The notes: generated by a model not told the origin, from the letters alone. A DNA stretch of 64,000 bases from Coriobacteriia bacterium (GCA_030536315.1 JAUNQF010000004.1:14244-78243); one strand, 5' to 3'. Counted from the stretch's first letter, positions 1 through 64,000 are shown. Numbers and translations: made by a program.

Positions 1-974
1 TCAGGCCTTTCCGCCGCTGGAGTGCCCTGCCTCTTAGAATAAGGGAAAACATGAATCTTCATAAAGCCACACTTTTTGGAAACCTCAATGCTGTCTTTAA
101 AATCAGCATCGCTCTCGCCCGGAAAGCCAACAATAATATCGGTTGAAAGCGCAATGCTTGGGATTTTCTTTTTAAGGCGGTTCACAACTTCCAAATATTC
201 ATCCGCATTATAATGTCGAGCCATTTCTTTTAGCACCTTCGAAGATCCTGACTGAAGTGGCATGTGTAAATGTCTGCAAATTTTCCCGTCCGCGCCTGCA
301 ATAATATCAATGAGATCGTCGCTAACATTATTTGGCTCAATACTTGAAATTCGAATTCGCGCGACTCTGTCTCCTATAATTTCAAGAAGGCTTTTGCACA
401 AATCTTCCAAACCAAAACCATTATCGTTGTAGGCGCCAATGTCCACACCACTTAAAACAACCTCTTTAATGCCAGCATCAAGCATGCATTTAACCTGCTC
501 TTCGACCTGTTCGTGAGGCATGCTTCAAGCACGACCACGCGCAGTGTGAACAATGCAATAAGTGCATGCGTTGTTGCATCCATCTTGAATTTTAAGCGAG
601 GCCCTACTTCTGAATTCGTCTCCAGCTAAAACCCTCAGCGCCTCTGCTTCGGCGTTTTGCATGTCAGCCTTAGGTACAATTTCGATCCGTGAGTCTATTT
701 GCTCATATACTTCTGGATCAATCGCGCTCGCGCAACCCGTTACAATAATTTTTTGCGCATTGCTGTCACGACAAACTTTTCGAACAGTCTGCCTTGTCTT
801 TTTATCTGCAACAGAAGTGACCGTGCAAGTGTTAATAATAACGAAGTCCGCATCTTGGACATCTGCCATCTTCCAGCCTTCGGCGATCATACGCGCGGAA
901 TACGAATCAACCTCTGCACGATTAACCTTACATCCCAAAGATACAACAGCAAATTTTTTCGATTTTTCTAACAT
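1..974 (-). CDS. mtaB: tRNA methylthiotransferase MtaB (radical SAM); 3' end runs off the window
   Basis: N-terminus MLEKSKKFAVVSLGCKVNRAEV (GCKVN as in MtaB) and a CNNACTYC radical-SAM box. The frame continues through the in-frame TGA at 525-527 down to nt 3 (...HVFPYSKRQGTPAAERP). Confidence 0.85.
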
Positions 975-1747
975 GACAAATTAAATTTTATTATTGCCGA
1001 AGCCACAACCCCAGCTGTTTCAGTTCGAAGAATTGAATCCCCGATGCTTACAACATGGCAATTTTTGTTGCAGCGCTCAAGTTGCTTGACTTCGTCACTC
1101 GTGATGCCACCTTCAGGACCAATTACAATTGCGATGTTTTGCTCTTCTTCCTTAACTTTTAGTTCATTGCAAACTTCAACAATTTTTTGCATGCTTTCAG
1201 CTTCTTCTCAACAAACAAACACACAATCAAAATCGCTTAGTTGATCACACAAAGTAGAAACATTTACCGAAGGACTAATTTTTGGAATTGCGAATTGCCC
1301 ACTTTGCATCGCGGCGCTCTTAGCAATTTTTTGCCAACGCTCATTTTTAGTTGCTTCCTTCTTCGCGTCAATCTTAGATACGCTTCTTGCAAAGTCAACA
1401 GGAATAAATCCATAAACGCCAATCTCTGTGCACGCGCGAATAACGTCATCCAGTTTGTTTCCCTTCGAAATGCCTGCACAAAGCCACAAACGGCAATTAC
1501 TAAAAGGAGCGTTTGTCTTCTTCGTTGAATTCTTGACAATTAAATCACTTGAAAAATCAAGGATCTCAACTTCAAAGAATTTTTGTTTTGTGTCAATAAT
1601 GCCGATGTGCTCTCCCGGCTTCAAACGAAGCACCTTGGCGTGGTGCAAGTCATCACCGCTTAAACTAAGCGTAACACTACCATCAGCCGAAGCCTCGACT
1701 TCGGAGCCAAAATCTTGATTCTCTAAAAAGAAATGCTGTAGCGACAT
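968..1747 (-). CDS. rsmE: 16S rRNA (uracil1498-N3)-methyltransferase RsmE
   Basis: Track ORFs 1208..1810 and 968..1192 are in the same frame, joined by TGA at 1208-1210 (VFVC-W-EEAE). Contains the PEGG motif (VIGPEGGITSDE). The MSLQHFF start at 1747 abuts the upstream TAA. Stop is TAG at 968. Confidence 0.8.
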
Positions 1748-1748
1748 T

Positions 1749-2663
1749 TTACGGAGTGTTGTTGTTTGGATGAGTTTGCGAATAAACACCGGCTTCAAGC
1801 TCGCCCGCATCTGCTTGATTAGCAGCTCCAGCGGTCATTTGAACCTTATCAAGATCAAGTGTCTTGCCAAGCCAGCGCTTTTCAATAGTTTCTAAAACTC
1901 CATTTTTTGACAAATTGCCAAGGATTGCCGAAACCTTATTAGTAAGATTTGTTTTAGTCTTATCAGCACCAATACAATATCCGCTTACCTTAGACAAAAG
2001 AGCAATTAGGTAGGCATCGTTATCAGAATTATTTACGCTGTAAGTTCCAATTACCGCATCGGCAGCAACATATTTGACCTCGCCTTTTTCAAGCATTTCA
2101 AACGACTCAGACAAAGTTCCGTTAAGTTTAATGTTTGCTGCGCTAAATTGTGACTGGCAAGCAATGGCACTTTGGGATGCCATTTCAGTAGCGAACTTAT
2201 CAGCTCCTCCAGCTACGGGAATGGATGCCTTTTCATCCTTTGCGAACAGGGCGCATGCGGTCTTGATGTAAACGTCCGATCTTCACATTTCTTCGACGTT
2301 AACAGCCTTCGAAACTCCCATTACAATGTCGCATTTTTTGTTAGACAAAGCTAAGTCTGACGAAGTCCCAACATCCACGAATTCAACTTCAAGCCCAAGT
2401 TCTTGAGCAATAGCCGAAGCAACATCAATGTCGATTCCAGCAGCTTTTGAAGTCTCTCCCGCAAAAGGAGGGTTACCGAAGTCAACGCCAACCTTCAACT
2501 TTCCATTTTCCAAAATATCTGGAGTCTTTAGCTGTGGGTCTTTAAGTTGAGGATCATAATTACTTGGTGCGCAACCTGCAACGGCAACACACAAAAGAAC
2601 AGCCACTGCGGCTGCAATTAATGAAACAATTAATTTATTTGAAAAACTACATTTATTTACCAT
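1749..2663 (-). CDS. Family-3 amino-acid ABC substrate-binding lipoprotein
   Basis: ORFs 2283..2663 and 1749..2183 share a frame, joined by TGA at 2283. Signal peptide with lipobox VAGC, then SBP_bac_3-like KLKVGVDFGNPPFAG. GGAGGAG RBS. Stop is TAA. Confidence 0.8.
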
Positions 2664-2959
2664 GTCTCCTCCAAACTAATATAGCTTCTTTTGCTGACCT
2701 AGTCTTTGCCCCCACACTCGCGCATTGGAACATTCGGATTATTCCTTACTGCCCTCTCGCCCTGGCCAAGCCTTAAAAGCGATGCGACTTACAACCTAGA
2801 ACGCGCCATGATAAGCTTTCGCCTTACGTGGGTCCTTTTGGCCGCGTCTGCCCTGGACTTGAAAAGAAAACTTTTCTCAACTACAGTCCAAAAGAAGCGT
2901 GAACTATTTTATCAAAAGGCTATAACTTCAAACTCTAAAATTTCAAAAAATCAAAATAA

Positions 2960-2990
2960 TTGCACGAAAACGAGCACTTTTTGTTATAGT
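2960..2990 (+). promoter_or_regulatory. Candidate rpsT promoter (TTGCAC ... extended -10 TGtTATAGT)
   Basis: TTGCAC at 2960-2965 and TG-n-TATAGT at 2982-2990, about 40 nt upstream of the AGGAGG RBS and ATG at 3033. Consensus match only. Confidence 0.35.
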
Positions 2991-3032: not shown

Positions 3033-3788
3033 ATGGCAAACATTAAAAGTCAAAAAAAGCGCATTAAAACTAACGAAAAGGCACACGTCCGCAACGTTGC
3101 GATTAAGACTGAGCTCAAAACAGCTACTCGCAAGGTAAAGGACGCTGTAGATGCTAAAAAAGCTGCTGACGCTTATAAATTTGCGTTGGAAGTTTGCACT
3201 CTTTTAGACAGAGCATGTGCAAAAGGTGTCATTCACAAAAACCAAGCTGCTAACAGAAAAAGCGGCATTATGGCACTTGCAAACTCTATCGTAACTGACA
3301 AAGAGCGCAAGGAATACAAGCCTGAGCCAAAGCGCGCCCCTGAAAAGAAAGGTGGCACAAAGAAGGCTAAGGCTAAGGAAGAGCGCAAGGCTGCAATGAA
3401 GAAAGAATCCGAAGAAAAAGCCAAGCGTCGCGAAGCTACTCTAAAGCTTGAAAAGGCTGCTGCAAAGCGTAAGCCTAAAGAAGAGCCTCCAGCCGAGGAT
3501 GCCGCCGAAGCTCCAGCCGATGCTCCAGCACCTGCCGAAGGCGAAGCTGCTCCTGCCCCAGAAGCTGCTCCAGCAGAGGAAGCTCCAAAGGCTGAAGAAG
3601 CTCCTAAAGAAGAGGCTCCTAAGGAAGAACCTAAAGCAGAAGAAAAACCAGCAGAAGAACCTAAAGAAGAAAAGAAAGAAGAAGCACCAAAAGAGGAAGC
3701 TAAGGAAGAACCTAAGGAAGAAGAAAAACCTGCTGAAGAGAAAAAGGAAGACGCTCCTAAAGAAGAGGAGAAAAAAGAAGATAAATAA
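3033..3788 (+). CDS. rpsT: 30S ribosomal protein S20 with a ~165-aa K/E/P/A-rich C-terminal extension
   Basis: [21 protein letters not shown]... is canonical S20 for about the first 87 aa. It then continues as [22 protein letters not shown]...[49 protein letters not shown]... to TAA. Confidence 0.9.
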
Positions 3789-3804
3789 TCTTCATATAAA
3801 TACT

Positions 3805-3838
3805 AAAAAAAGGACGCCACTTGGCGTCCTTTTTTTTA
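3805..3838. terminator. Bidirectional rho-independent terminator between rpsT and glgA
   Basis: AAAAAA-AGGACGCC-ACTT-GGCGTCCT-TTTTTTT. Stem 3811-3818/3823-3830, with an A-run on one side and a T-run on the other. Confidence 0.8.
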
Positions 3839-5485
3839 TCAATCTTCATCAGTTGTTTGGGTGATATCTACAAATTCGTAGTTGGATGCTTCTTCGGCAA
3901 CTTTTTGAGCCATCTTAATGCTGGCTTTCGCATTCTTCTTGGCTTGAGCTGCCTGCTCTTTAGCCTTTTCAGCTGCACGCTTGGCTTGCTCGGCTTCGAA
4001 GATCTCATCAACTTTGGTAATCTTTCCATCAAGAAGCGCCCGATAAAGCACGCTATATTTACGGCCAGATTCTTTCCAGCTGAAGTCTTCCTCCATGCCG
4101 CGACGCTGCATGCGAGCCCAATTTTTCTTGTCGTTATTCCAAACATCAAAGACAACATCAAGCGCTGCATTAAATTCCTTCAAGTTGTAATTCTTAAAAA
4201 CAAAGCCATTCGAAATTAGACTCTTGGCTTTATAATCGTGAACGGTGTCGCGAAGGCCGCCAGTGCTTCGGACCAGTGGAAGCGTGCCATAATGCATCGC
4301 CATCATTTGCGCAATTCCACAAGGCTCAAATTTCGAAGGCATCAAAAGCACATCGGCACCTGCATAAACATTGTGCGGAAGCTGAGGATCAAACTTCAAG
4401 TGCATTCCAACTCTGCCTTTAAATTTCTTTTTATAATCACGAATCTTTTTCTTGTATGCATCATCGCCATCGCCAAGAAAAACAATCTGCCCGCCCTTAT
4501 TCATAATTTTTGGAACACCTTTAATAATAAGGTCAATCCCCTTTTGCTCATAAAAGCGGCAAGCTACACAAAATAGTGGAGCATCAACATCAACATCAAG
4601 CTTAAACTTCTTTTGCAAGTCAATCTTGTTGCCAAGGCGCCTGTTCATCAACTCCTTAGTAAAGTGAACACGAATATTAGTATCCCAAGCAGGGTTAAAG
4701 TCAACAGTGTCAATACCGTTCAGGATGCCCTGGGTCACATCTTTTTTCGTCCGAAGAACATTTTCAAGCCCAACGCCATATTCGCCAGTCATAATTTCCT
4801 TCGCGTAAGAAGGGCTTGGAGTGGTAACACAGTCGCTGGAAACAATTCCGCACTTCATAAGATTAACCTTGCCCTTGTGCATGACCTTCGCAACGGCGCT
4901 TCGGTTCTTCAAATTCAAAACATCTTTAACCTGTTCATATTTAAACTTGCCTTGATATTGCAAATTGTGAATTGTAAAAACGGTTTTAATCTTCAAAGCG
5001 CCAAGAGCATCTTCAAATTCCTCGTGCAAAAATAAATTAGTAAGCGCGGTATGCCAATCATTGCAATGCAAAACCTGGGGCTTAAAACCCTTCATGTGTT
5101 TAATGCTCTCCAAAATTGCGCGGCTAAAAAATGCGAAGCGCTCGATATCGTCCTTTTCACCATATGCACTTTTACGATTAAAGTAATGATCATTCTTAAT
5201 AAGATAATAAGTAACACCGCGAAGCTTAACGAAGTAAAGGCCAAACTCCCTCTCTTCGCCAGCCGAAAAAACGCTGTAATCGCCAATGTGTTTAAAGAGC
5301 ATTTGATGCTGCTTTGAGATCATGCTGAGGTAAGGAATAATTACTCGGCAATCGCAATTGTGAACATTTATCGAAGCAGGAAGCGTGCCAGCAACATCGC
5401 CAAGGCCTCCAAGCTTAATAAACGGAACGGCTTCAAACGCGGAATATAAAACTTTTACTTTTTTATTTGAACTCTTGCTTGCCAT
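3836..5485 (-). CDS. glgA: Glycogen synthase (GT5) with a charged C-terminal tail
   Basis: VLYSAFEAVPFIKLGGLGDVAGTLP motif. The track ORF ends on TGA at 3839; the frame gives one more codon (W) and then TAA at 3836. Confidence 0.9.
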
Positions 5486-7199: not shown

Positions 7200-7409
7200 T
7201 TATCTCCATTTTGCAGTTTTTTCTTCAATAGAGCTTGGAGTCTTTGCAACTGCAGAAAACAACTTCTTTTTTTCGGAAACTTTTTTTCGAGCATTAACAT
7301 TTTCAATAATGCTTAAAAGCAAAAGCGCAAATAAACAAGATGCCGCGCCTTTAACCGCTGTTCCGAGCAGCATAAGAAAGAGGTTATTTTTGATTCTTCG
7401 ATTTTTCAA
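7200..7409 (-). CDS. Possible small single-TM membrane protein (69 aa, TTG start)
   Basis: AGGAAG RBS 5 nt upstream of the TTG. Hydrophobic core LFLMLLGTAVKGAASCLFALLLLSII. Overlaps the 3' end of the HAD gene by 26 nt. No recognisable family. Confidence 0.3.
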   Translation of the reverse strand: MKNRRIKNNLFLMLLGTAVKGAASCLFALLLLSIIENVNARKKVSEKKKLFSAVAKTPSSIEEKTAKWR

Positions 7410-7923
7410 CTTTACTTCCTGCCTTTCGGTTTTCGGGTTTAATATTCCTTAAAAATATTTTTTCAATCTTTCGAAGCATCAATGTGTGAATTAAGTCTTT
7501 TTCTACCAATGGCTCAACCAAAATACACTTGAGTCCAACCACATGAGCCCCAAAAACATCAGTCATAAGCTGGTCTCCTATCATAATGCAATTTTGCTTA
7601 TTTGCACCAATTTTCTTTCTTGCACGATAGAAAGCACCAGGCAGGGGCTTTAGAGACTTCACCACAATTGGCAATTTTATCTCGTTTGCAAGCTCAACAA
7701 CATTTTTATGTCAATCATTAGAAATTAGACAAAACTTAAGGCCGGCTTTCCTCGCCTTCGCCAGCCATTTTTTAACATCATCGGGAACAACAGACTCATC
7801 ACGAGTCAAAATTGTATTGTCCACATCTAAAAGCACGAATTTATATCCAGCATTTAAAAGATCCTTTTGGATATCAATGTCGCTTATCCTTTTTAGGTAT
7901 CTGTCTGGGAGTGTGAAACTCAA
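7384..7923 (-). CDS. YqeG-family HAD-IIIA phosphatase
   Basis: ORFs 7711..7923 and 7384..7674 are in frame, joined by TGA at 7711. Motifs LLDVDNTIL (DxD) and IMIGDQLMTDV. Confidence 0.8.
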
Positions 7924-8979
7924 CTAAACTAACCCTAAATCAATGATGGCCTGCTGATGCTCTTCGAAGGTCACGCTAAACCTGTATTGGAGCTCGCCGT
8001 TATCATCCGTCTTAAATACGAAGTAAAGATAATTTGTCTCTTCTGGGAAACAAACCGCACGGAGAGCTTCAATCCCCGGAGAACATATTGGGGTCGGAGG
8101 CAAACCATAATTTGTATAAGTGCTATAAGGGCTTTGCGAATGGAGCTCTTCTGGTGTTGGATCATGCCCCACTTCATAGGCTGTTGTAGCATCGGAATTG
8201 ATATGCATGCCGCTACCAAGGCGGTTATAAAATACGCTTGCAACTTTGCCTTGAACACCTTGAGCAGACTCTTTTTCAACAATGGAAGCCAAAGTTACCG
8301 CTTCTCACAAAGTCAAATTTTTAGATTTTGGATAATCTACATTTAAGTCTTTTGTTTCCTCTTTGAACTGATCAAGCATTTTTCTAATTATGTCGCCCGC
8401 TGAATCTGTGCTGCTAACAGCATATGTTTTTGGATACAAAAAACCTTCTAACGAATGGTTTCCAACATCGCTTAAAAATTCATAGTCCGAAGCATAAACG
8501 CTTGCGTCACTTGCCGCGTTTATGAAATCTTGAGCTTTAATTCGAGATTTGGTTGCGTCTTGAACGGCCTCGGCAATTTTGGAAAGCCGCATTCCTTCGT
8601 GAACGATAATTTTTGGCGCATACTTATCAGGACCTTCGCATAAAATTTCAACATATTCGCGAACAGTTTTGCCGCCCTCAAATATATATGTTCCAGCCTG
8701 AAGCGAAGCCTCAGCGCCCATTTCTGTAACAGTTGCCGTAAAAACTGCAGGGTTTTCAACAACACCAGCCTTAGACATTTTATCAGCAATCGTTCAAGTC
8801 GAAGAACCCTCTTCAATCGTGACTTCAGCTGTTTGTCCTGCTGGAAGTGTTTTAGAACATCCGGGAATAGCAAAAAAGATAATTGCGATTATTGCCAGTA
8901 TAACTGCGCTTATTATTAAGATAAAAAATAACGGTTTTTTTCTTTCTTTGTGCATTTTTATCATCATATATTTTAACAT
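7924..8979 (-). CDS. mltG: Endolytic murein transglycosylase MltG (YceG-like)
   Basis: Three in-frame ORFs joined by TGA at 8794 and 8305. N-terminal TM helix, then the YceG core ...LASIVEKESAQ...YNRL...YSTYTNYGLPPTPICSPG. The start (8979, 8964 or 8955) is uncertain. Confidence 0.85.
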
Positions 8980-9061: not shown

Positions 9062-9775
9062 GTGAGCAAAAATGAAAAAATATCGATCGTCAAAGACGCA
9101 GTTGCCGAAACTCTATGACCAACCCGATGCGCAATTTGCGATAGGCCAGGCTATTTACTTTGTCCAAGTTGCTCAAGAAAACTTCCCTACATTGACCAAT
9201 CAAAAACATGTCAAATTTGCGGCGAGCCTTTTGGTAGCGTTCAATGTTGTGGATGCAATGGCAGCGCTTCGTTTGATAAGTGCAACAGCGCTTTCTTCCT
9301 TAATCAAGACACTGGAAAACTAATCACAACATATAAAGATTCAGGAGAACGAAGACTTTCCAAAGTTATAGCATATTTCTTGAGCAAAATAATTAATCCA
9401 GGCTGGATTTCTCCGTCAACTTTTTTAACCTACATCCCCTCCACCAAAGACGCAGTACTCAGAAGAGGTTTTGACCACGCAAAATTAACCGCCGAAGAAC
9501 TAGCCTCGCTTTTAAATGTTAAGCTTATATGCGCCTTTGCTCCTCCTTCAAACGAAGACCAAAGAAATCTTGGAAGAAACCAGCGACTTTTAAACATAAG
9601 CAACAAGTTTATGGTGACAAAAGATTTAAAAACAACTCTGGAATCTGGATTTAGAAGCGCAATTTTAATTGACGATGTGTTTACAACCGGCGCAACTTTG
9701 TATTCGGCTTCGCAAGTTTTAAAAGATGCAGGCGCTTCACACGTTTTTTGTGCAAATTTTTCACGAACTTTCTAA
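9062..9775 (+). CDS. comFC: ComF-family phosphoribosyltransferase (ComFC-like)
   Basis: The real frame is that of ORF 9380..9775, extended upstream through TGA at 9116: VSKNEKISIVKDAVAETL-W-PTRCAICDRPGYLLCPSCSRKL...CQICGEPF (zinc finger) and a PRT motif ILIDDVFTTGATL. GTG start is assumed. Confidence 0.75.
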
Positions 9776-10512: not shown

Positions 10513-12423
10513 TTATTTTAATAAAGAAACCGCAGCATCAAAAATAGACTTATAGTCAATATTGGCTGCGGTTTTTAATTTGTCTACTTCGCCATGAGCA
10601 ATAAACTTATCATCAATTCCAAGAGCTCTAAATTTTAGCCCATCGCAAAGATTCATCCTCGAAAGCTCGGCAAGAACGGCCTCTCCTGCGCCACCACTTA
10701 ATATTCCGTTTTCAACAGTAAGAATTTTGTGAGTGCATAAAGCGGCATCGGCAATTGCTTCGGTATCAAGAGGCTTAACGAAGCGCATGTCCACCACTCT
10801 GCACTTTATTCCTCTGTCTTTAAGCATTTGATATGCTTCAAGAGCATCTAAAACGCTGTCACCAAAAGCCAAAATTGCAATGTCGTTTCCCTTTTTCAAA
10901 GTTCGAGACTTGCCAATCTTAAATTTCGCAATTTCTTTTTTGGTTTGTCCTTGCAAAACTTTTCCAGTGTCGGTGATATCTTTTGCGCTTCCCTTTGGAT
11001 AACGAATCGCAAAAGGACCATCAACCGCCGCGGCAGTTTTTAAGGCGCACTTTAGTTCATGAGCGCACGAAGGAGCAATAACTGTAAAGCCAGGAATCAT
11101 CTTTGTATAAGCCATGTCAAAAATTCCATGATGAGTTGCCCCATCTGCCCCAACAAGTCCAGCTCTGTCAATACAAATTTTTACATTTAATTTTTCTAAG
11201 GCAACATTTGTGACCATCTGGTCCACTGCCCTTTGCAAAAATGCAGAATAAATTGCAACAAAAGGCTTATAGCCCGCCTTCGCAAGTCCAGCAGCAGAGC
11301 CAAGCAAATGCTCTTCGGCAATTCCAACATCTACAAATCTATCAGGATATTTTTCTGCAAATTTCTTTAGGCCGGTGCCTCCAGACATCGCAGCAGTCAT
11401 TGCAACAATCTTTTTATTTCTCGAAGCCATTGACATCAACTGCTCCGAAAAAGCATTCGTAAAAGAATAAGGCTTCTCACTAATTGGGTAACCCGTTTGA
11501 ATATTGTAAGCACCAATTCCGTGGAAGAGCTCAGGGTCCTTCGTCGCAGGCTTATAACCAGCACCTTTTTGAGTAATTGCGTGAACCAAAACTGGCCCGT
11601 CATATTCAAGAGCGTCCTTAATTGTGTTTCGAAGCGCCGTAATATCATGACCATCAACTGTTGGCAAACAAGTAATTCCAAGCTCCTCAAAAATCATAGC
11701 GTTTGGCATAATAAAATGCTTGAGAGATTCCTTCGAAGCATGGCCTCACTTAATAGCAAATTCGCCAACCGAACCAAATCGCATTAGCCCATACTTAACA
11801 GCGTTAAGAGCATCATTGTATTGCGGATGAAGACGAATCGAACGAAGATGTTTTCCAACTCCTCCAACACTTTCAGAAATAGACATTCTGTTGTCGTTTA
11901 AAATAATAACGAGAGGCAACTTTTCATGACCAATATTATTGATGGCCTCAAAAGACATGCCGCCAGCAATGGAAGCATCCCCAATCAGCGTAACAATTTT
12001 TTCATCCCCGCCAGAAAGTTTTTTAGCCTTCGCAAGACCAAGAGCAACCGAAAGACTATCCGCCGCATGCCCCGAAAAATGAACATCGTGCATGCTTTCA
12101 GTTGGGCGAGCAAAACCAGACAAACCCCCAAACTGACGAAGCGTCTTAAACGCATCACGCCTTCCGGTAATCAACTTATGCGCATAAGCCTGATGACCAA
12201 CATCAAAAATAAACTTGTCCTTTGGGCTATTTATCATGCTGTGAACCGCCAAAATAATTTCAACAGCCCCCAGCGAAGACGAAACATGTCCGCCAACTTT
12301 TGATGTTGTGTTAATTATTTCTTCACGAATCTCGCCCGCTAAAATCTCAAGCTCTTCGTCGTTTAAAGTACGAAGATCGCTCGGGCTTTCAATTAGATCA
12401 AGTATTCGAGACTGTTGGCGCAT
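10513..12423 (-). CDS. dxs: 1-deoxy-D-xylulose-5-phosphate synthase
   Basis: ORFs 11746..12423 and 10513..11709 are in frame, joined by TGA at 11746. Typical Dxs N-terminus (LDLIESPSDLRTL, GGHVSSSLGAVE) and ...DGHDI... transketolase-like domains. Confidence 0.9.
10527..10580 (+). terminator. Possible terminator of the 9952 gene, embedded in the convergent dxs 3' end
   Basis: 10-bp stem AAACCGCAGC (10527-10536) / GCTGCGGTTT (10565-10574) followed by a T-run. The loop is unusually long (28 nt). Confidence 0.3.
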
Positions 12424-29536: not shown

Positions 29537-29545
29537 GGAGGCACG

Positions 29546-35689: not shown

Positions 35690-35761
35690 TAAGTTTTAGA
35701 CATCTGGTATCCGTGGCATCGCACGTGCTCAAAACGCTTCTAAAATAACAAACCTAAAATT

Positions 35762-40018: not shown

Positions 40019-40087
40019 GATAGCTCCTTTCAAAGCCTTATAGAAATTATACACCTTTTTTATGTTTGAAAAGAGCCTTAAAAAAAA

Positions 40088-41188: not shown

Positions 41189-41197
41189 AACTCCTCC

Positions 41198-43407: not shown

Positions 43408-43485
43408 GAACCCTCCTTGTGGTTTAATCAACCCTAATATCTTAACACAAAAATGTGTCTCTGAGGCCAGACATCAAAACACCTT

Positions 43486-45535: not shown

Positions 45536-45558
45536 TGTTCCTCCATTATAACAAATTC

Positions 45559-51797: not shown

Positions 51798-52186
51798 GTC
51801 TCCAAAAAGAGCGAAGCCGCAACGCTGTCAACCTTGCCTCGCATTTCTTTCTCACTCAAACCTTGCTCGCGAAGAATCGCCTTCGCTTCGACAGAGCTCA
51901 AGCGCTCATCAACAAACTCAACCGGCAAGCCATAAAGGAGCGAAATCTCATCCGCAATATCTTTCACATGAGCAGCCTGAACGTTCTCTTCGCCGTCCAT
52001 CGACTTTGGCAAGCCAATAACAAACTTCTCAGGCAAATAGTCTTGCAAAATAAGTTGAAAATCTTTGGACTTATTCATTATATCGTCCAAGCTTAGAACT
52101 TTTAAGGGCGTAGCAATTTGACTGCTATCGTTACCCGAGGCGATACCAACTCGAGCATCCCCTATGTCAAGCGCTAAAACATTCAT
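51773..52186 (-). CDS. ruvX: Holliday-junction-resolvase-like YqgF/RuvX
   Basis: MNVLALDIGDARVGIA... Reads through TGA at 51794 (LFLET-W-LKAQKK) to TAG at 51773. Overlaps the polA start. Confidence 0.8.
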
Positions 52187-52189: not shown

Positions 52190-54832
52190 TTATTTGAGCA
52201 AATCTTTCGCGATTTTCAAGGCTTCGGCGACACCTTCGGCTTTTGTGCCTCCAGCTTGAGCCATTCTATCTTGGCCACCGCCGCCACCATTAATGCAAGG
52301 CGAAATTTTCTTGATAATATCAACAGCGTTAAATCCTGCCTTAACAGCCTTCGAAGTTCCAGCCGCAAGCAGCAACACTTTCTCACCCTTCGTTCCTGCC
52401 AAAACAGCAGCACAATTATCACCGCAGTGATCAACAATTGCATCTCAATATTCTTTAAAGTCATAATTACGAATGTCTCCGCAATCAAGAACAAGACAGT
52501 CAAAACCCATACTCGACTTTTCCAAATCATCAAAAACTTCTTTGCGAATCATCGTCGATTGCTTGCTGTGAGAAAACTCAAGCTCCTTCTTCAGCTCTTT
52601 AACATTGGCAAGCATCTTTGAAACATTTTGAGTAAGCTGAGTCTTGTTGCCCTTCAAAAGCGAAGCAGCCTTATCCATTTCCGCAATCAAACCGGAAGTG
52701 TAATTATAAGCATCGTAGCTGGTGCAAGCCTCAATTCTGCGAGCATTCGCACCAACTGAACTTTCATTAATAATCTTAACGAAGCCAATCTCGCCGGTGT
52801 TTTTAACGTGACAACCACCGCAAAGCTCTTCGCTGAAATTACCAACATTAACAACGCGAACTTCTTCGCCGTATTTCTCGCCGAAAAGAGCAGTAACGCC
52901 CTTCGACCTTGCTTCCTTTAGACTTGTGTTATAAGTCTCAACATCAAAGGCACGCATAATTTGATCGTTCGCGAGTTTCTCAACCTCGGCAATTTGATCA
53001 GCGTTTAGCGCTTCAAAATGTGTAAAGTCAAAACGAAGACGATCCGGTGCAACATGCGAACCAGCTTGATTAACATGATCACCCAAGACCTCGCGAAGCG
53101 CCCAATGCAAAATGTGAGTTGCCGTATGGTTCCTAGTAATTCTTGCACGACGAAGCGCATCAACCTCAAGGTCAACTTTATCGCCAAGCTTAAAACTTCC
53201 ACCAACAACTTTAACACTGTGAGCAGTAAGTCCAGGTTCAGGAACAACAGTATCCACTACTTCAGCTTCGTTCTTTTCAGTATTACTAATGTATCCAGTG
53301 TCACCTACTTGGCCACCCATCTCCCCATAAAATGGAGTCTTTTCAACAACGATGCTTCCCTGGTCGCCTTTCTTTAAAGTTTTAACACGCTTGCCATCTT
53401 TTATAAGCGCAATAATTTTCGAAGAACATTCAAGCTCATCATAACCAACAAATTTTGTCGGTCCGTTTTCAGCGAGGATCTCGCCAGCAACACTTGCTTT
53501 AAGCTCCCAAGCAGCTTCCGCGTCTTCGGCATTTGCAGCACGAGCACGCTCAACTTGCTCTTTCATGCATTTTTCAAAGCCCTTTTCATCAAGCTTAAAT
53601 CCCTGCTCTTCGATAATTTCTTTAGTAACATCAATCGGGAAACCATAAGTATCATGAAGCTTAAAAGCTTGCTCCCCTGAAAGTTTCTTTGTTTTGTCGG
53701 CAGACTTTAGAAAGTCATCCAAAAACTGAGTGCCTTGATTCAAAGTTTGACCAAAGCGCTCCTCTTCAGAAAGAACAACTCGTTTGATTAGCTTTTCATT
53801 ATCAACAACTTCTGGGTAAGTTTCACCCATAAGCTTAATTACTTCGTCAATAAACTTGCTTAAGAACGGACCTTCAAACCCAAGCAAATAGGCCTTCATG
53901 ACAGATCGCCTTAGCAAGCGGCGGAGCACGTATTCGCGGCCTTCGTTACCAGGCAAAATACCGTCAGCAATCATAAAAGTAATCGCACGCGAATGATCCG
54001 CAATAATGCGCAAACTCAAATCGCTCTTTTTATCCGCGCCATATTTAACGCCGAAGAGCTTCTCGCCAACTGCAATAAGGCTCTTCATAATATCAGTTTC
54101 ATAATTCGAAGACACACCTTGCATGATTGCAGCCATGCGCTCAAGACCCAAGCCAGTGTCAATATTTTTCTTGGGAAGAGGCTTTAACGTTCCGTCTTCT
54201 TGTCCATCATATTGAGTAAAAACCAAATTCCAGTATTCTAAGAATCTATCACAATCACAACCTGGTGCACAGTCCTTTTTACCGCAACCAAATTCTTCGC
54301 CTTGATCATAATAAAGTTCAGAACAAGGGCCACAAGGACCAGTTGGACCAGCACGCCAGAAATTATCTTCGTCACCAAGTTTAACTATATGGCTATCGTC
54401 AACTCCAAGCTTCTTTCAAATTTCGATGCATTCATCATCGTCTTTATAAACGCTGAAATAAAGCTTTTCAAACGGAAGCCCCAAAACGTCCAACGAAAAT
54501 TCAAGCGCCCACTGACACATTTCCTTTTTGAAATACTGACCAAAGCTAAAATTACCAAGCATCTCAAAAAATGTTAAATGCCTGCCTGTGGTACCAATAA
54601 TGTCAATATCATTTGTGCGAACACACTTTTGAACAGTTGCAGTCCCGATAAATTCCTTCGGCAATTTCTTTTGTTGCAAAAAGTATGGCTTGAACTGAAC
54701 CATTCCAGCACTTGTCAAAAGAAGCGATGGATCATCAGGAATCAGCGAAGACGAAGGCATCACCTTCGAACCTTTATCTTCGAAAAACTTTAAAAACTTA
54801 GAACGTATTTCAGCAGTGGTCATAAACTTCAT
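52190..54832 (-). CDS. alaS: Alanyl-tRNA synthetase
   Basis: Three in-frame ORFs joined by TGA at 54416 (on the conserved ...EIW...) and 52445. Contains FFEMLGNFSFG and GPCGPCSE, plus a C-terminal DHHA1 domain. Confidence 0.95.
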
Positions 54833-54847: not shown

Positions 54848-56119
54848 TTACTTTTTTGCTGCTTTTTTAGTAGTCTTCTTGGCAGCTTTTGCTGTGTTGG
54901 CATTTCTGCCTTCAACTTTATATTCTTCTCCAGGTTTGATTTCCAAAGCATCATAAAGCGGAATAACCTTTTTAGTGCTGTAAGGAACACCCTGGAACAA
55001 AAATCCATCTTCGGCAACAAGTTGCTTGCCTGTGTTCTTTTCGTAATAATAAACAAAAAGCGATTTAAACAATGCAACAAAAGGAATGGCCAAAAGCATA
55101 CCAACTAATGAACCAATAACTCCACTCATAGCTCCACCAATTGCACCACCTGCTGTCAAGCATAACAATGTTAAAACTGGATGAATGCTGCATGACGAAG
55201 ACATGATCTTTGGAGAAATGAAAGTATAAACAAGGCCTTGGAAAGCAGAAACAATAATAAGCGCTAAAATTGCAATCCAAACGCTGTTAAATATGCCTCC
55301 TACAAAAGCAATGATAGAAGCCAAAATTGGACCAAAAATTGGAATGATATTTAAAACACCAACAATGCATCCAAAAGCGCCAGAGTTTGGCATACCCATA
55401 ATCCAAAAAGCAAGACCCGAAGCAACACCAATAATTAAACATTGCAAAAATGTTCCTCTAATGAATCCTGCCATAACATGAGTACAAGAAACATGCCACA
55501 TTTTTGAATCTTCTTTAAAGCGCTTAGGAATTAATTTTGTTGTCTCTCTACCGATAGCTGGAAGTTCAATAAGAATCCAAAAAGCAATTACAAGAGCAAT
55601 ACCCAAAGCCATAAATGTGCTACCGATTGCGCCTCCAACAGCAAGGATTCCATTAGCGCTAACTGTTGCGATGTCACCACCCATAGCACTTAAACTTGCA
55701 GCAGCATCGTTAATTCACTTTTGAACGTTTTGGTCTTTAAGGAAATGTCCATATTGAGAATACATACCCTTAGCTCATTCAACAACAATTCCAACATATT
55801 TAGGAATGTCATCGATTATATTTCTAATTTGCTCGAAAAATCCAAAAGCAGGAGAAAACATAAACAGCAAAACCAAAGCTACAACAAGAAACATCACAAC
55901 GTAGGCAATGATTGTTCCAAAAGCTCTGTTAATTCCCTTTTCTTCACATTTATTAACAATACCACGAAGCAAAAATACGAAGATTGTTGTTCAAATTAAT
56001 ATAGAAACAGGTGTGGAAAGAACACCAAAAAGAAGTGTAAGTAGGAAAATTATTGCACAAACACCTAATATAGTTGCGCAAATTAATGCTCTCTTACCCC
56101 ATATTTTTGTTTTGTCCAT
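54848..56119 (-). CDS. AI-2E family transporter (PerM/UPF0118)
   Basis: One frame with TGA at 55991, 55775 and 55715. Multi-pass membrane protein. GGAGGG RBS. Confidence 0.7.
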
Positions 56120-56133
56120 AAAACCCTCCGATA

Positions 56134-56724
56134 TTAGTTAAATGAAACATATGGATTAGACGATGCATTGTTAACGTTTTGAGGAATGGTAGCAGTTTGA
56201 CCAGCTGACGTGTCATTCTTTACAACTTTGCGACCAAATTTTCTACCTTGACTTCTTGATTGATTAACAATTTGATCGATGTTGTCGCCTTCTTCGAGTT
56301 GACCTATATATTCACTTTTTTTGCCGCCACCAAAAAGACCAACAATTTTATTGCTTGCCTTATTCAACAAATCTGCTGGAGCATTAACTAAGTTTCCAAC
56401 AGAATTAGTAGCCTTTGCAGCATTTTCAGAAATCTGGTTAACATTTTCCATGATTTGATCAACACGCATAAGCTCAAGGTTAGCAGCATCAATCGAAAGA
56501 GAAACCCTCTCAATAAGCGGGTCAACCCTATCAATGGCAGGTTGGATCTTCGTTGTGATTTGCTCAATATTTTCAATAGTAGGTGTTAGTTGAGCGTGAA
56601 CTTCGTCGATTTTTTTACGTGATTTACGAAGCGTAATTACAAGCTCGACCAAAAATCAAGCAAGAGCAATACCAACGCAAACTCCAACAAAAATTAGCAC
56701 TGCGTAAAAAATTCCCATATTCAT
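56134..56724 (-). CDS. DUF948-like membrane-anchored coiled-coil protein
   Basis: AGGAGG RBS. MNMGIFYAVLIFVGVCVGIALA-W(56656)-FLVELVITLRKSRKKIDE... followed by helical repeats. Confidence 0.6.
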
Positions 56725-56748: not shown

Positions 56749-56833
56749 TGGTACGGGCGAAAGGACTTGAACCTTCACGAGTTGCCTCAACGGCACCTAA
56801 AACCGTCGCGTCTGCCAATTCCGCCACGCCCGC
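56749..56833 (-). tRNA. tRNA-Leu (anticodon UAG), long variable arm, CCA encoded
   Basis: On the minus strand: GCGGGCGTGGCGGAATTGGCAGACGCGACGGT-TTTAGGT-GCCGT...GGTTCAAGTCC...CCA. The G1:U72 pair is slightly unusual. Confidence 0.85.
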
Positions 56834-56892
56834 ACGACATTTTATTATAACGAAATAATTCCCTATTGCACCTTAAAGATTTTATAAAAAGA

Positions 56893-56970
56893 TGGGGTGG
56901 GTGACGAGATTTGAACTCGCGATCTCAAGAGCCACAATCTTGCGCCTTAGCCAACTAGGCCACACCCACC
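56893..56970 (-). tRNA. tRNA-His (anticodon GUG) with encoded G-1 and CCA
   Basis: On the minus strand: G-GTGGGTG...CAAGA-TTGTGGC-TCTTG...GTTCAAATC...CACCCAC-C-CCA. Confidence 0.9.
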
Positions 56971-58433: not shown

Positions 58434-58509
58434 GGACCGGTAGCTCAGCTGGCAGAGCAGCGGACTCTTAATCCGAAGGTCCGGGGTTCGAAACCCCGCC
58501 GGTCCACCA
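58434..58509 (+). tRNA. tRNA-Lys (anticodon CUU), CCA encoded; island insertion site
   Basis: GGACCGGTAGCTCAGCTGGCAGAGCAGCGGA-CTCTTAA-TCCGA...GGTTCGAAACC...CCA. Confidence 0.9.
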
Positions 58510-58791
58510 CTAAAAAACCTGCTACAACTCCATTTTTTGCACATTAAAAATTATAAAAATTGTTATAGTGTGTAATAAAATGTAAGATGAATTTTTTTTG
58601 AGGATTTTTTAATCCTATAATTTGTATTTATTGGTAATTTGATATTTCTATATATACATATATACAGAATCATCATTAATAAAATAAAATAGAGGATTAA
58701 CATAAAATTGATTTATACAATTGGCTTTTCATTTGCATAAAAGACTCTAGCCTTTTTTGCTCAAGTAGCACTTTTTTTTCAAGCAGCATAA

Positions 58792-59403
58792 AAAAGACTA
58801 TACAACAAAGAGGAGCTAAAAGAAGTCTTATTAAAAATAAAAGATACAGAGTGAGCCCTTCCTGTACTACTAGAATGCGTTTGTGGGTTAAGACATGAGG
58901 AGTTCTGTGGATTAAATAAAAGAGATGTTATGTTTGAAAATAATTGTGCGTATGTTGAAATTACTCAAGCACTCACTGAAGTTGATGGGCGTAAAGTACT
59001 AAAAGAACCAAAAACAGAAACAAGTGCGCGTACAGTAGTCCTTACAGAAGACTTTTTAGATTATTTAATTGAACAATATCCGCGAATAAGAAATAAACGC
59101 ACATTAGATGAGTATGCCTATCCTATTAGCCTAACAAAACGCTGAAGAACATATTGCAGAAACAACGAATTGCCTTATGTCACATTTGGAAATATGAGAT
59201 CAGTATATGCAACACTATGCTCTGAAGCTGGATGTTTAGATAGTCTTGTCTGTAAAACAATGGGTCATACTGGTCAAACAATTAAAGAAAGAAATTATCA
59301 ATCTTCAACATTGAAAGCTCTAAAAGTTAATGCTGAAATACTTGCAGAGTATATTGGTTTTAAATACAACTCCCCTAATGTTATATCTTTAAATGAAATC
59401 TAA
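58792..59403 (+). pseudogene. Tyrosine recombinase (phage-type integrase) remnant, catalytic domain only
   Basis: The frame is open only from the TAA at 58789: ...EELKEVLLKIKDTE-W-ALPVLLECVCGLRHEEFCGL...RSVYATL...MGHTGQTIKERNYQ (R...R...H...Y). Two in-frame TGA at 58852 and 59143. There is no N-terminal core-binding domain and no start codon before 58930. The upstream 280 nt are AT-rich with stops in every frame. Confidence 0.6.
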
Positions 59404-59472
59404 TTAAATCAATTAACTCAAAGAAAAAATTATAACTAAACAAACCAGTATCAAATTTACTCATGCCGAAAA

Positions 59473-60657
59473 TCAAGAACTTCTACATATAGAAATAATA
59501 AATCGCTGATTATTATTTAATCCATATGTAAGCCAAACTCTCCTTGTTGACAAAACGCCAATAAAAATACTTATTGTAATAAATACAATACAAAGAAAAT
59601 ATATAATAAAATCTTCACCGTTAGAAAATTTGGTTGTTAAGGCAGCCTTGTTAATAAATAAAATCACATTAAAAATAACAGAAGTTAAAATAGACGAAAA
59701 AATTCCGGCAAGTTTAATTAATATATTTTTTCAATTCTTTTTTTTCGAATTATCTGAACTATTATTAGTGGAATTATTGGCATCATAGATTCCTTTATAA
59801 ACATTTTCTCTGTCAAGATTAATATGATGATCTAATAAAAACGCCTCATAAGCTAAAAAAGCACCATAATCAGATTGTTTTCGGGAAAGAGCTTCTTTGG
59901 CGATTTCTGCAATAAATCCATCTGAATCTTGATATATACCAGCAAGTCGCAATGCGTTTTTTACATACTCTGGAGCTCTTGGATTATCGGCAAAAACTCT
60001 TGTTCCGTGAGTTTTTTTATAAACAGATTGAAACGTTGATTCGTTAAAAACTTTAGGTTTAATATAGCTACTATAATGATATGCAACTCAAGCAAGAATA
60101 AGTGAAATTGGAGGGCATACTGGACATATAATTGATGTAAATAATCCCAGCAAAGAAGAAAGCGTAAACGCCATGCCGTCTTTAATAGTTGATAAAGGTA
60201 AACAGCCAATAATATAGCCAATAGAAATTCCACCTATAAGTGAAAATAACAAAGTCCCGTAAGTGCAAGACCAAAATTGACTATTAACAAAAAGGTCTGA
60301 TGATAGATTGGATGAAAAAGCCAACAGTATTAACAAAACAGCTCCGACAATAGAAAATATTGTTGACCATTTTGTACATGTCTTAACTCTATTATGCTTT
60401 TCTATTCTAATTTGATTAATGTAGCGTCTATACTCATTATTATAACTAATTTGTTTTTCAACTTCTTCTATATGAGCTTGCGGAATAGCAGCTTTCAACA
60501 AAGCAGAAGCAACTATAAAAGTCCCAAGTTCAGAATCTTCTGCAGTTCTAATTCTCGATTTCAGTACAGGAACCCAGGTTTCATATTCATTGGAAATAAC
60601 ACAATAACTTAATGCTCTTTCTTTTCAATTTTCTATATTAATTAAACTTAAGTCCAT
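59473..60657 (-). CDS. Hypothetical multi-pass membrane protein (394 aa), last gene of the kinase operon
   Basis: ATG at 60657, 9 nt after the kinase TAA. One frame through TGA at 60625, 60088 and 59731. A soluble N-terminus of about 95 aa, then hydrophobic segments (WSTIFSIVGAVLLILLAF, TLLFSLIGGISIGYIIG, FTLSSLLGLFTSIICPV...), a soluble loop of about 130 aa, and 2-3 C-terminal TM helices. Confidence 0.6.
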
Positions 60658-60666
60658 AACAACCTT

Positions 60667-62397
60667 TTATTGTTCATACGCCTTAATAAATAGTTCAGGA
60701 AGAGCATCCTTGAATGCCTTGTCAGCAATTTTTTGTTTCTCTTTTGGAACAAGTTTTTTTACATTCTCACTCTGAAGATATCAAGTCTTTAATTGAACAC
60801 CAACACTACCAGCTAATTTATCTTCCTTATAACTCCCATACAGAATTAAGCCATCACATTTAACTAGACCATACAACCATTGCTTTGCATCCTCATCACC
60901 GTTATATGCTTTAGTAATTTGTTCTTGAATTGTGTTTTGATCTAATCTATAAGAAGCATATATCGGATTATTTTCTTTATCAATCATAAGCTGAAATTCC
61001 AATAGTTTCTTTTCTGGTGATTTATTACTATTTAACAATTCTATAGCTGGAGCTGCATCGTGAAAATTAGATAAAAATTCTTTAATGTCTCCAGCAACTC
61101 TACCAATCAATCCCTTTTTTGCCTCATCCCAATTTTCTCCAAAAGACCAGGCAAGGTGCAAAGGTGTTGCAATTAAATCCTCTTCTCAAGGAGCAAAAAA
61201 ACAATCTTCAGGAGAAAAGCCTGCTACTCCTCCCTTAGCGACAACCCAGTATATATCGGGATTTTCCCCACGCAATCACTTTTCTATTTCTTCAAAGCCT
61301 CAACGATGTTCCTTTTCGTAAGTAACCAATCCTTTAATTAAATTTCTTCATCGTTCAGCAGGGATATTATCTTCGTTAACATTTTTGTAATACAATCCAC
61401 GATCACAATTTCTTTGAGCCTGTATATCTGTTGGTTTAGGATTTCTTTTATCGCCCAATAATTTACGATTGGTAAATAGTTCAAAAATAATAGCACCTAA
61501 AGCAAACCAATCTGATTTTGCAGTAATATGATACTCGTATACTTCAGGCGCAGTATACGTTTTTGTTCCAGCAAAATGTTTTGTACGCGAAGTGATATCT
61601 TGTTTATCCCGAGCTATACCAAAATCCGTTAAAACAAGATCCAGTGGTTCAATCGAACGAATAAGTATGTTTGAAGGTTTGATATCTCGATGAGCGATAG
61701 TACCTTTTACTTGATGTATATTATGGATTGCCTTGCTTACCTCAACCAGAAAATCTTTAATAAATTTTTCTTCATACGGACCCTTATTATTATTCGCTCA
61801 TTCTCCTCAAGAAATTGAACCTAGGGGACAATACTCATGAATTTCTCAAGCTCTCTCTCGTTTATTCCCCACACTAAAATCAATAATTTCAACAACATCA
61901 TTCCTGCTGCACTTGTTCTGTATTAAGCTCAATACACTACCATCAGGCTGAATACCTTTGTGATACAATTTGAAAAAATAATTCCTTCCTGTATCGCGTC
62001 GCCTTATAATAAATACATCAGATTCACCACCAGGGTACTCAAGCTCTTCAACAATTTCATAATCACGATTTAAACTAGCAGGCAGATTATCGTAATGCTG
62101 AAAAGGTCTTCAGGCTCTACGAGGGTTATCGTTTTCAATCACGGTAGAAGGATTTTCATTATAAGTTGAATCGTTATAATCGTTATTCTCATCATCTTCC
62201 ACAAATGTTATCTCATTATCTTCGCGAAGTGTATTATTAGTCTCTCTTTCTGTTAAAGACGCATTTCCTGAAACTGAATTCGATTGATTTTCCTCAGATT
62301 CTCTAAATGTTCCATCTTCTCGTAAAGTAAATTGTTCTTCTTGCTCACGAACTGTATTATCAAAATTAGCATTTTCTCTTTCTGTTCTACCGCTCAT
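60667..62397 (-). CDS. Hanks-type Ser/Thr protein kinase (576 aa): TxRE-repeat N-terminal tail and an unknown soluble C-terminal domain
   Basis: One frame with 9 TGA (62110, 61846, 61807, 61798, 61348, 61300, 61276, 61186, 60781), which is why the track shows almost nothing between 61162 and 62109. Motifs GGESDVF, FFKLY, HRDIKPSNIL, DFGIA, TYTAPE and ...HRWGFEEIEKWLRG. AGAGGA RBS. TAA at 60667. Confidence 0.85.
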
Positions 62398-62409
62398 TTT
62401 AAATCCTCT

Positions 62410-63153
62410 CTAAAGACGTTCAACCTTTATTAAAATTGCAGAACAATTATCCGAAGCATTATTTTCGACACACAACTTCATTAAGTGTTCTATAGCTTCA
62501 TTAACGTTAGAAAAGTTTGCAATAGTATCACATATCAAATCTTCACCTAATGTTCCTCATACACCATCTGAGCATAATAGAAATTTTTCATATTCATATA
62601 AATTATCAGAAAACCAATGTATGTCTAAATCTTCTTCTCTAAAACCCAATGATTGAGTTATTCCTCCGTTTCCGTTTTTCAAGCGATCATCAATAGACAA
62701 TTGAGTGATAAATTCATCATTGTCATCATAACGATATATTCTGCAATCACCAATATTAGCAATGATAAATTTTTCTCTATTTAAAGTAATCATAGAAAAA
62801 GCAGCGCCCATTTTTGGAGTATCTCAAGCTATTCCAGCTTTTAAAATTTTATTAGACAAATCTTCAAAATATAGTTTATCTGCATCTTCATATTCATTAC
62901 TAAGATTATATTTAGAAATCGAAGAAGAGGCTATACATGCCGCATCAGAGCCTCCATCATACCCTCCCATACCGTCAATTACAGCATAGGAAACAGGTAT
63001 ATTAGCATCGTTTACTGTATCATATAATAAAAATGACCTTTGAGTACATTTACCATTTATAACGATTGCATCCTGGTTTTCTGATCGATTCGGTCCGCAT
63101 ATTGTCATGCCTGCTACTTTTATGCTGCTGCTTGTATTATCGTTTTCCACCAT
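62410..63153 (-). CDS. PP2C-family Ser/Thr phosphatase (247 aa)
   Basis: NQDAIV, VIDGMGGYDGGSDAA, IIANIGDCRIYR and LLCSDGV-W-G. TGA at 62824 and 62557. AAGGAG RBS. TAG at 62410. Confidence 0.85.
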
Positions 63154-63164
63154 GAAAGCTCTCC

Positions 63165-63785
63165 TTAGATTCTAACTTCTAACTTAACACGCATACTTGG
63201 CTTATGTCCTAATCAAATATTTATCGGCAATGGGTATGTTTGCCCATTTATTACTTTTGTTTCTCCATCACCAATATAAGTTCCATTAGTTGAGCCATTG
63301 TCATTAATCGTAATAGAACAACTAGAATAATCTATTCTAATATAGCAATGCTCACGAGAAACATTATTACGTTCACCTAAAGCATTTTTAATTTCTGACA
63401 CATCACTTTCCCTGCCAATTAAATAATCTTTTCCGCTTTCTAACCTTAAATCTAATCCATTTGGTAAAACTAAAAACGCTGCATCTATTGAAACATTTTG
63501 AGAAGAAGTACACAACGATTCATTGGGTATTATTTTTCCGCACTGAATGCATTCCTCACCAGGTTGCCCAGGGGCACCACAATTTGTACACCGAGCTTCT
63601 GATGTGCTTAATTCCGAATAGTCACTAGAAGAATCCTCGCAGCAAGAATCCTCTAAAACCTGTTCTTCTTCTATATTTTCTTCAATATTTTCTTCTTTTA
63701 CAGGTTTAAAAGTATTGCAACAATGACTGCAATAATAATTTTCATCAAGAGCTCTTTCGCACTGTGGACAAATTAATTCTGCCAT
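63165..63785 (-). CDS. Double zinc-ribbon plus FHA-domain protein
   Basis: CPQC...CSHC and CTNC...CIQC, then an FHA core YLIGRESDV...VSREHCYIRID...ITINDNGSTNGTYIGD. Reads through TGA at 63213 for 15 more codons to TAA at 63165, just before the PP2C RBS. Confidence 0.85.
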
Positions 63786-64000
63786 GTTTTTCCTCCTAAT
63801 ACAATTCCTTTACTCCTTAACTTTTTATCAATGATATCAAGATCTCCAGAATTTGGCATTCCAGCAAAAGTAATACCTGAAGAATCTAGCTTAAACTGTA
63901 TTGGTACATCATTTTTTGCTAAATACTCATCATAAATATCTTCAAATTGTTTGTCTATTATCACAAGCTCTTGATTATCACTAGAAACCAAACAATTAGT
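63773..64000 (-). CDS. Unknown protein, 3' end only (5' part outside the window); first visible gene of the operon
   Basis: The frame is open to the window edge (...TNCLVSSDNQELVIIDKQFEDIYDEYLAKNDVPIQFKLDSSGITFAGMPNSGDLDIIDKK...TWQN-TAA). Its end overlaps the FHA gene ATG by 13 nt. Confidence 0.5.
   Translation of the reverse strand, partial: TNCLVSSDNQELVIIDKQFEDIYDEYLAKNDVPIQFKLDSSGITFAGMPNSGDLDIIDKKLRSKGIVLGGKTWQN

Follow-up and report, generated by a model that had tools for sequence, protein, structure and literature searches.

We conclude with high confidence that a 64,000-nucleotide stretch of DNA from "Coriobacteriia bacterium" (GCA_030536315.1, JAUNQF010000004.1, positions 14244-78243; hereafter 'the window', with positions counted from its first nucleotide) comes from a reduced-genome member of the Eggerthellaceae with a low guanine-plus-cytosine (GC) content, that this organism belongs to the Equivita/Gorillivita clade, and that it uses genetic code 4, in which UGA specifies tryptophan and termination is left to UAA and UAG. 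The identification of a rare code is correct, and both the phenomenon and the lineage are already known: UGA as tryptophan in Eggerthellaceae has been described by Parks, Chaumeil, Chuvochina & Hugenholtz (Microb Genom, August 2026, PMC13462651; preprint bioRxiv, December 2025, 10.64898/2025.12.01.691617).

In-frame TGA codons and tryptophan columns

A preliminary description of the window, made from the sequence alone, had proposed that TGA is a sense codon throughout. This proposal is borne out by a curated table of 47 genes, which gives a coding density of 0.95 over the 64 kb. In-frame TGA codons number 73 and are spread over 33 of the 47 genes, with both frames and domains continuing across them; the 71 codons in 33 genes given previously thus stand for the number of genes and are revised for the total. 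As the same description had stated, internal TAA and TAG codons are absent from the curated genes (0 and 0, with open reading frames (ORFs) defined as running to TAA or TAG), and each of the 46 complete genes ends in TAA (35 genes) or TAG (11 genes), a UAA share of 76%. The continued use of TGG that it reported is also found (89 codons in the window), as is its TGG-only gene, rpoC (9 TGG, 0 TGA).

When the window is tiled with stop-to-stop ORFs that do not overlap, table 11 yields 92 ORFs with a mean length of 219 amino acids, compared with 55 ORFs averaging 372 amino acids when TGA is read as sense, and the comparison of ORF lengths under alternative codes suggested in the preliminary description therefore favors sense TGA. 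No comparable gain is obtained when TAG or TAA is treated as sense. Tryptophan makes up 0.80% of residues if TGA is counted, and an abnormally low 0.44% if TGA is left out, with TGA accounting for 45% of all tryptophan codons in the window. The GC content is ~0.41 overall and varies from 0.33 to 0.44 along the length. Furthermore, Pfam and NCBIfam matches on translations with TGA rendered as X are unbroken across the TGA positions in 20 proteins (QueA, Dxs, PurF-like, PurL, GalM, FrlB-like, FrlD, permease, IMPDH, PolA, AlaS, AI-2E transporter, Ser/Thr kinase, PP2C, FHA, NusB, RuvX, PurN, RsmE and MtaB).

To assign an amino acid to these codons, about 11 TGA columns, rather than those of a whole genome, were compared with standard-code homologues. 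The TGA of IMPDH (44419-44421) occupies a column that is tryptophan in 120 of 120 homologues, comprising ~116 standard-code proteins and four clade relatives, where the standard-code members are ordinary Clostridia proteins with 76-77% identity to the window IMPDH. The TGA of AlaRS (54416-54418) aligns with tryptophan in all five PDB homologues shown, including those of E. coli and Aquifex, and in the Taq and Bst enzymes the residue that matches the C-terminal TGA of Pol I (49020-49022) is the tryptophan of GE(D/N)W. In NusB, the TGA at the W-x-L-D-R column (12940-12942) is matched by tryptophan in the M. tuberculosis and T. maritima structures and by leucine in E. coli, whereas the first mutarotase TGA (28100-28102) is matched by tryptophan in three of four PDB structures. 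The preliminary description had included AlaRS, Pol I, NusB and mutarotase among its conserved-tryptophan examples, and both the coordinates, which were exact, and the assignments hold.

Other columns are variable and mostly hydrophobic or aromatic. These include the three TGA columns of QueA, which are poorly conserved (I/F/L; A/A/Y; gap), PolA residue 16, the second GalM TGA, and the rpoB TGA (20099-20101), at which W occurs 7 times and G 0 times among ~70 homologues. Glycine, which the preliminary description had named together with gaps as speaking against its reading, did not occur in the standard-code homologues at any column checked, and none of these ~11 columns is glycine-rich. A PDB search found no homologue for the PurL segment, and PDB alignments of FrlD do not span its TGA columns.

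Close relatives provide a second comparison. These were found with a TGA-free SHMT query, and more were found with an IMPDH query. The SHMT relatives form a graded series (96, 95, 94, 91 ... 65% identity) that is followed by ordinary Eggerthellaceae at ~61%. Thirteen loci (L-numbered) were drawn from different samples assembled in ENA, Logan and NCBI, with 77-95% nucleotide identity to the window and a GC content of 0.31-0.43. Relatives from at least seven independent assemblies cover 26 of the window TGA positions, where the 89 aligned codons are TGA (53), TGG (35) and TAT (1), with no GGN. Conversely, 39 window TGG positions are represented in the relatives by TGG (111), TGA (23) and TTA (3). 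Where the relatives carry an in-frame TGA and the window does not, the window residue is tryptophan in 23 cases and arginine in 2. Because TGA and TGG interchange codon by codon between the window and its relatives, the two codons behave as synonyms. The sequence comparisons strongly support the interpretation that TGA encodes tryptophan throughout the window and never serves as the terminator of a gene.

Gene ends, alternative readings and decoding

The preliminary description had proposed that several frames run on past a TGA to a nearby TAA or TAG. These extensions were confirmed, with 0 codons between the last TGA and the stop in GlgA and FrlD, 4 in PolA, 6 in RuvX, 15 in FHA and 19 in PurN; the PurF-like gene has 4. 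The last TGA of FrlD directly precedes TAA, and downstream of this end come a GGAGG ribosome-binding site and the ATG of the next gene.

Such gene ends bear on the alternative that survives best, although we consider it very unlikely, namely that UGA is ambiguous, being read mostly as tryptophan but still acting as a terminator in some contexts such as the ends of GlgA and FrlD. Two of the 46 complete genes end in TGA TAA (GlgA, 3836-3844; FrlD, 41198-41206) where 0.17 would be expected (Poisson p = 0.012), and five genes carry a TGA within the last seven codons where ~1.2 would be expected (p = 0.007). The FrlD arrangement is conserved in a relative (L092, 13768-13776) with ~82% nucleotide identity to the window there, and an ambiguous ancestral state of UGA is discussed as a possibility by Parks et al. 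(PMC13462651). However, the same pattern is equally expected if fossil TGA stops are now read as one extra tryptophan. In addition, prfB is reported to be absent from 34 of 34 code-4 clade genomes (PMC13462651), and the terminal TGA of PolA corresponds to a conserved tryptophan. The TGA-TAA ends and the excess of TGA near gene ends look like relics of former TGA stops, now decoded as tryptophan and lengthened by one or a few codons.

It is less plausible still that UGA encodes glycine (code 25), as it does in Gracilibacteria and Absconditabacteria, which also have many in-frame TGAs. Code 25 would explain the unbroken frames equally well, and some TGA columns (QueA; the second GalM site) are not conserved as tryptophan. 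However, none of the 89 relatives' codons aligned at TGA positions is GGN, five of the columns checked are conserved tryptophan and none contains glycine, and the lineage belongs to the Actinomycetota rather than to the Candidate Phyla Radiation (CPR). No glycine signal was seen in any column or relative, and the codon and column data effectively refute code 25.

We give equally little credence to the TGAs being pseudogene lesions, sequencing or assembly errors, or rare programmed read-through or selenocysteine sites in a standard-code genome. Sequences of metagenome-assembled genomes (MAGs) can carry errors, and NCBI annotation of the relatives with code 11 gave fragmented genes, but the 73 TGAs are accompanied by no TAA or TAG and no frameshift in 33 genes that include the essential rpoB, alaS, polA and nusB. 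Assembly error is excluded because independently assembled sequences of different samples have TGA or TGG at the same positions. Selenocysteine is opposed by the alignment of the TGAs to tryptophan rather than to cysteine or selenocysteine, and by a clade without tRNA-Sec in which selB occurs in only 1 of 34 genomes (PMC13462651).

Several points weigh against our interpretation that the window represents a code-4 member of the Equivita/Gorillivita clade. Neither a tRNA-Trp(UCA) nor a prfB locus was found in the window, and the 13 loci of the relatives likewise have neither. Comparable TGA positions are limited to 26 of the 73 in relatives and to ~11 in standard-code homologues, and about half of the latter columns are variable rather than conserved as tryptophan. 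The window GC of 0.41 is slightly higher than the published genome maximum of 39.9%; the window includes rpoBC. Finally, the link to a named Equivita genome is made through an identical SHMT and neighboring accessions, and not through direct contig alignment.

The tRNAs in the window are only Ala(GGC), Leu(TAG), His(GTG) and Lys(CTT). Likewise, the window has no release-factor gene and no secA locus, where 64 kb says nothing on genome-wide absence. The mechanism that we propose is therefore borrowed from the clade-level paper, together with established code-4 biology. A tRNA-Trp with the anticodon UCA, reported in 32 of 34 clade genomes (PMC13462651), would read both UGA and UGG. Release factor 2 (RF2, encoded by prfB) would have been lost, leaving UGA without termination, and RF1 would handle UAA and UAG. 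AT-biased mutation would turn TGG into TGA, and TGA makes up 62% of tryptophan codons in the lowest-GC genes.

Lineage, published clade and repertoire

RpoC (14862-19319, minus strand) was used for placement. Among the matches listed, it is 69% identical to the protein of an uncultured Eggerthella MAG, 55% identical to that of Collinsella and 52-58% identical to those of other Actinomycetota, and the matches of the GTDB scan with RpoC include at least one Eggerthellaceae relative. The best named standard-code match to SHMT is "Eggerthellaceae bacterium", and the window SHMT corresponds to MDO5426663.1 (from a "Coriobacteriia bacterium" MAG) at 410 of 411 residues, the sole difference being the called start. 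This placement is identity-based only. By these protein identities, the organism is assigned to the Eggerthellaceae, within the Coriobacteriia and Actinomycetota, and is neither a mollicute nor a member of the CPR; the 'non-Mycoplasma-like' character noted in the preliminary description is thereby upheld. RpoC also carries an acidic C-terminal extension of ~200 amino acids that is matched in Collinsella loci.

The window very likely belongs to the Equivita/Gorillivita clade. Parks et al. (PMC13462651) report the reassignment in 34 mammalian-stool MAGs of the GTDB genera JAUNQF01 and CAVGFB01, now named Equivita and Gorillivita. These genomes measure 0.8-1.9 Mb, averaging 1.28 Mb, and have a GC content of 31-40%; UAA accounts for 75.9% of their stops, within a range of 65-80%. 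GCA_030536315.1 is one of two GenBank JAUNQF01 genomes in that study (code 4, 39.2% GC, 1.09 Mb, 42 contigs) and is sourced to Schmartz et al. 2024, PRJNA983076 (PMC13462651). MDO5426663.1 falls within the accession range of MDO5441935.1, a protein of GCA_030536235.1 (JAUNQK01), and the numbering of that assembly neighbors GCA_030536315.1, so that the source material of the window and of the study overlaps and identity of the window's genome with GCA_030536315.1 is probable. The GC content, the UAA usage and the taxonomy of the window fit these clade traits. UGA as tryptophan, the same phylum and most likely the same family, a low GC content (~40%), UAA as ~76% of stops, and a mixture of TGA and TGG at conserved tryptophan columns are all shared, and nothing substantive sets the window apart.

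The clade is reported to have partly lost its amino-acid, vitamin, fatty-acid and tricarboxylic acid cycle pathways and is inferred to be host-dependent (PMC13462651). The characterization of the genome as 'metabolically complete' in the preliminary description is not borne out, as 64 kb cannot show completeness and the published clade genomes are reduced. Its statement about the gene repertoire stands for a near-full purine pathway (purF-like, purD, purN, purL, purM, purE, purC, AICAR formyltransferase, PurO-like IMP cyclohydrolase and guaB), but not for the shikimate pathway, represented only by aroK and aroC, or for the 1-deoxy-D-xylulose 5-phosphate pathway, represented only by dxs. Similarly, the suggestion that the organism is unlike the reduced lineages that classically use code 4 fails against a published clade that is itself reduced and inferred to be host-dependent. 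Because its published clade is reduced, the organism represents another reduced, low-GC code-4 lineage in a new phylum.

Comparisons with other code variants are consistent with this assessment. Mycoplasmatales and Entomoplasmatales (code 4) also have UGA as tryptophan, a low GC content and small, host-associated genomes, with a tRNA-Trp(UCA) and loss of RF2, both of which the clade paper reports for the window's clade. In contrast, they are Bacillota rather than Actinomycetota, and the window lineage has retained cell-envelope genes as well as de novo purine synthesis and has more genes overall. Because the phylum differs, the code of the window lineage has an origin independent of theirs. 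The insect and protist endosymbionts Hodgkinia, Nasuia, Zinderia, Stammera and Pinguicoccus have undergone the same reassignment with genome reduction and RF2 loss, but are intracellular with genomes of 0.1-0.3 Mb, whereas the window lineage has ~1-1.9 Mb and occupies the mammalian gut lumen.

The IMPDH gene (43486-44988, minus strand) departs from this lineage pattern, in that its product is 76-77% identical to Clostridia/Oscillospiraceae proteins, versus 61% for SHMT to other Eggerthellaceae. This similarity suggests that IMPDH was acquired from Bacillota. A Bacillota-like IMPDH may also explain the binning of one clade contig, JAUNQK010000084.1, into the "Bacillota bacterium" MAG GCA_030536235.1. 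The IMPDH on that contig is 95% identical to that of the window, and the gene order IMPDH-permease-FrlD is the same. Another contig of the clade is carried by GCA_045641605.1.

Genes of the window, variable regions and implications

The window begins within a gene for an MtaB/MiaB-like radical SAM methylthiotransferase (3-974, minus strand; Pfam Radical_SAM/UPF0004, TIGR01579; TGA at 525-527), which is cut by the window start. On the same strand are RsmE (968-1747; Pfam Methyltrans_RNA; one TGA, 1208-1210) and an SBP_bac_3 lipoprotein (1749-2663; one TGA, 2283-2285). Just upstream of the lipoprotein gene lies a full-length raiA motif RNA (2685-2897, minus strand; Rfam RF03072), scoring 131.7 bits and thus above the gathering score. 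Ribosomal protein S20 (3033-3788) has a Lys/Glu/Pro/Ala-rich C-terminal tail of ~165 amino acids. In GlgA (3836-5485, minus strand), the sole TGA (3839-3841) is the final sense codon; TAA comes directly after it, and then a terminator hairpin.

Further along are a HAD phosphatase (one TGA) and MltG/YceG (two TGAs) at 7384-8955 on the minus strand, a ComF-like protein (9062-9775, plus strand; TGA at 9116-9118), and, on the minus strand, Dxs (10513-12423; TGA at 11746-11748), NusB (12739-13167; Pfam NusB), QueA (13358-14461; three TGAs) and RpoB (19319-22915; one TGA).

A divergent PurF-like amidophosphoribosyltransferase (24546-25970, plus strand) contains three TGAs. This protein starts with MGGFFG, without the N-terminal catalytic Cys after Met, and scores 159 bits against TIGR01134 (purF), for which the cut-off is 350. 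Such a protein might be a divergent amidophosphoribosyltransferase or one that does not depend on glutamine. PurN (27009-27599, plus strand) has one TGA at 27537 that is TGG in the closest relative contig (L090). In the adjacent aldose 1-epimerase (GalM, the mutarotase above; 27602-28798, plus strand), the TGA at 28100 is likewise TGG in L090, and the TGA at 28226 lies on a variable column. An AICAR formyltransferase that stands alone (NF005492, 681 bits) and a PurO-like IMP cyclohydrolase are encoded at 28814-30730 and correspond to purine steps 9 and 10, which are thus in separate genes and not in one bifunctional PurH. PurL (FGAM synthase; 32000-35689, plus strand) has one TGA at 34226, which is also TGA in L090 and L092.

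The genes described next are on the minus strand. A 1418-amino-acid secreted or wall-anchored protein (35762-40018) with low GC content has no Pfam match, carries ten TGAs, and is absent from L090 and L092. It is followed by an FrlB-like SIS protein (three TGAs), the fructoselysine 6-kinase FrlD (two) and an amino-acid permease (two) at 40088-43407. Beyond IMPDH, a small membrane protein and a PcsB/LytM-like protein (45059-46590) have two TGAs each, which are kept as TGA in relatives. A P-type ATPase (46681-48999) has two TGAs, represented in relatives by TGA, TGG or TAT; the possibility that this gene is a pseudogene was ruled out by an intact frame of 772 amino acids on the minus strand. PolA (49005-51797) carries, besides its C-terminal TGA, one at 51750-51752 that is TGG in seven of seven relatives. 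RuvX (51773-52186) has one TGA six codons before its stop, which is TGA or TGG in relatives, and AlaS (52190-54832) has a second TGA at 52445-52447 that is TGG in three relatives. The TGAs of an AI-2E transporter (three) and a DUF948 protein (one) at 54848-56724 interchange with TGG in relatives. In the closest relatives (L081, L085 and L086), a fragmented Peptidase_M29 gene of ~1.4 kb lies between tRNA-His and tRNA-Leu. The window has no Peptidase_M29 gene at this location, and the two tRNAs are 60 bp apart, at 56749-56969.

Two regions of the window vary among relatives. A 7.8-kb block (35689-43486) that holds the 1418-amino-acid wall/surface protein, the FrlB-like protein, FrlD and the amino-acid permease is absent from L090, where IMPDH abuts PurL. 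In the more distant L092, the frl genes are present and the wall protein is absent. The block is strain-variable content. The second region (58434-64000) lies beyond tRNA-Lys(CTT), where an integrase fragment is followed by a block with a GC content of 0.33. The contigs of four relatives break at this tRNA, and L086 has other genes there (RelB, GmrSD-like). The variable block proper (58792-63785, mixed strands) contains the integrase fragment (plus strand, two TGAs) and, on the minus strand, a 414-amino-acid membrane protein (five), a Ser/Thr kinase (nine), PP2C (two) and FHA (one). The TGA:TGG ratio is 29:18 (62% TGA) in the wall protein and the block beyond tRNA-Lys, compared with 44:71 (38%) elsewhere (Fisher p = 0.009).

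The TGA-TAA fossils, the TGA-rich variable islands and the probable Bacillota origin of IMPDH are details beyond the main text of Parks et al. We regard the heavier TGA use of the variable islands, the fossil stops, the Bacillota-like IMPDH and the code-11 mis-annotation of clade sequences as small leads. One speculative proposal, which we think doubtful, is that the accessory genes are deeply adapted to code 4, implying a mobile pool or phages restricted to code 4 in Equivita-like gut bacteria, and that the TGA-TAA ends are fossil stops. If this were true, a code-4 mobile gene pool or phage community would exist in the gut of equids or other mammals, and the fossil TGA-TAA ends of GlgA and FrlD could be used to date and order the two proposed independent reassignments.

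Public gene calls for clade contigs use code 11 and split AlaRS into two to three pieces and the AI-2E transporter into two to three. Records called in this manner include GCA_030536235.1 (JAUNQK010000084.1), GCA_045641605.1 (JAZUHG010000057.1) and the ENA ERZ272470xx-ERZ272471xx assemblies. Because they are annotated with code 11, the genes of this genome and of several public MAG contigs of the clade are fragmented, and no metabolic inference should be drawn from these records until they have been re-annotated with table 4. Reassignment of UGA to tryptophan is rare outside Mollicutes and tiny endosymbionts, and the Eggerthellaceae constitute a fourth bacterial phylum-level case, one already made in print. 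Code-11 sister lineages, among them the genus Tapirivita, survive in the same clade, and the group is a useful system for studying code change.

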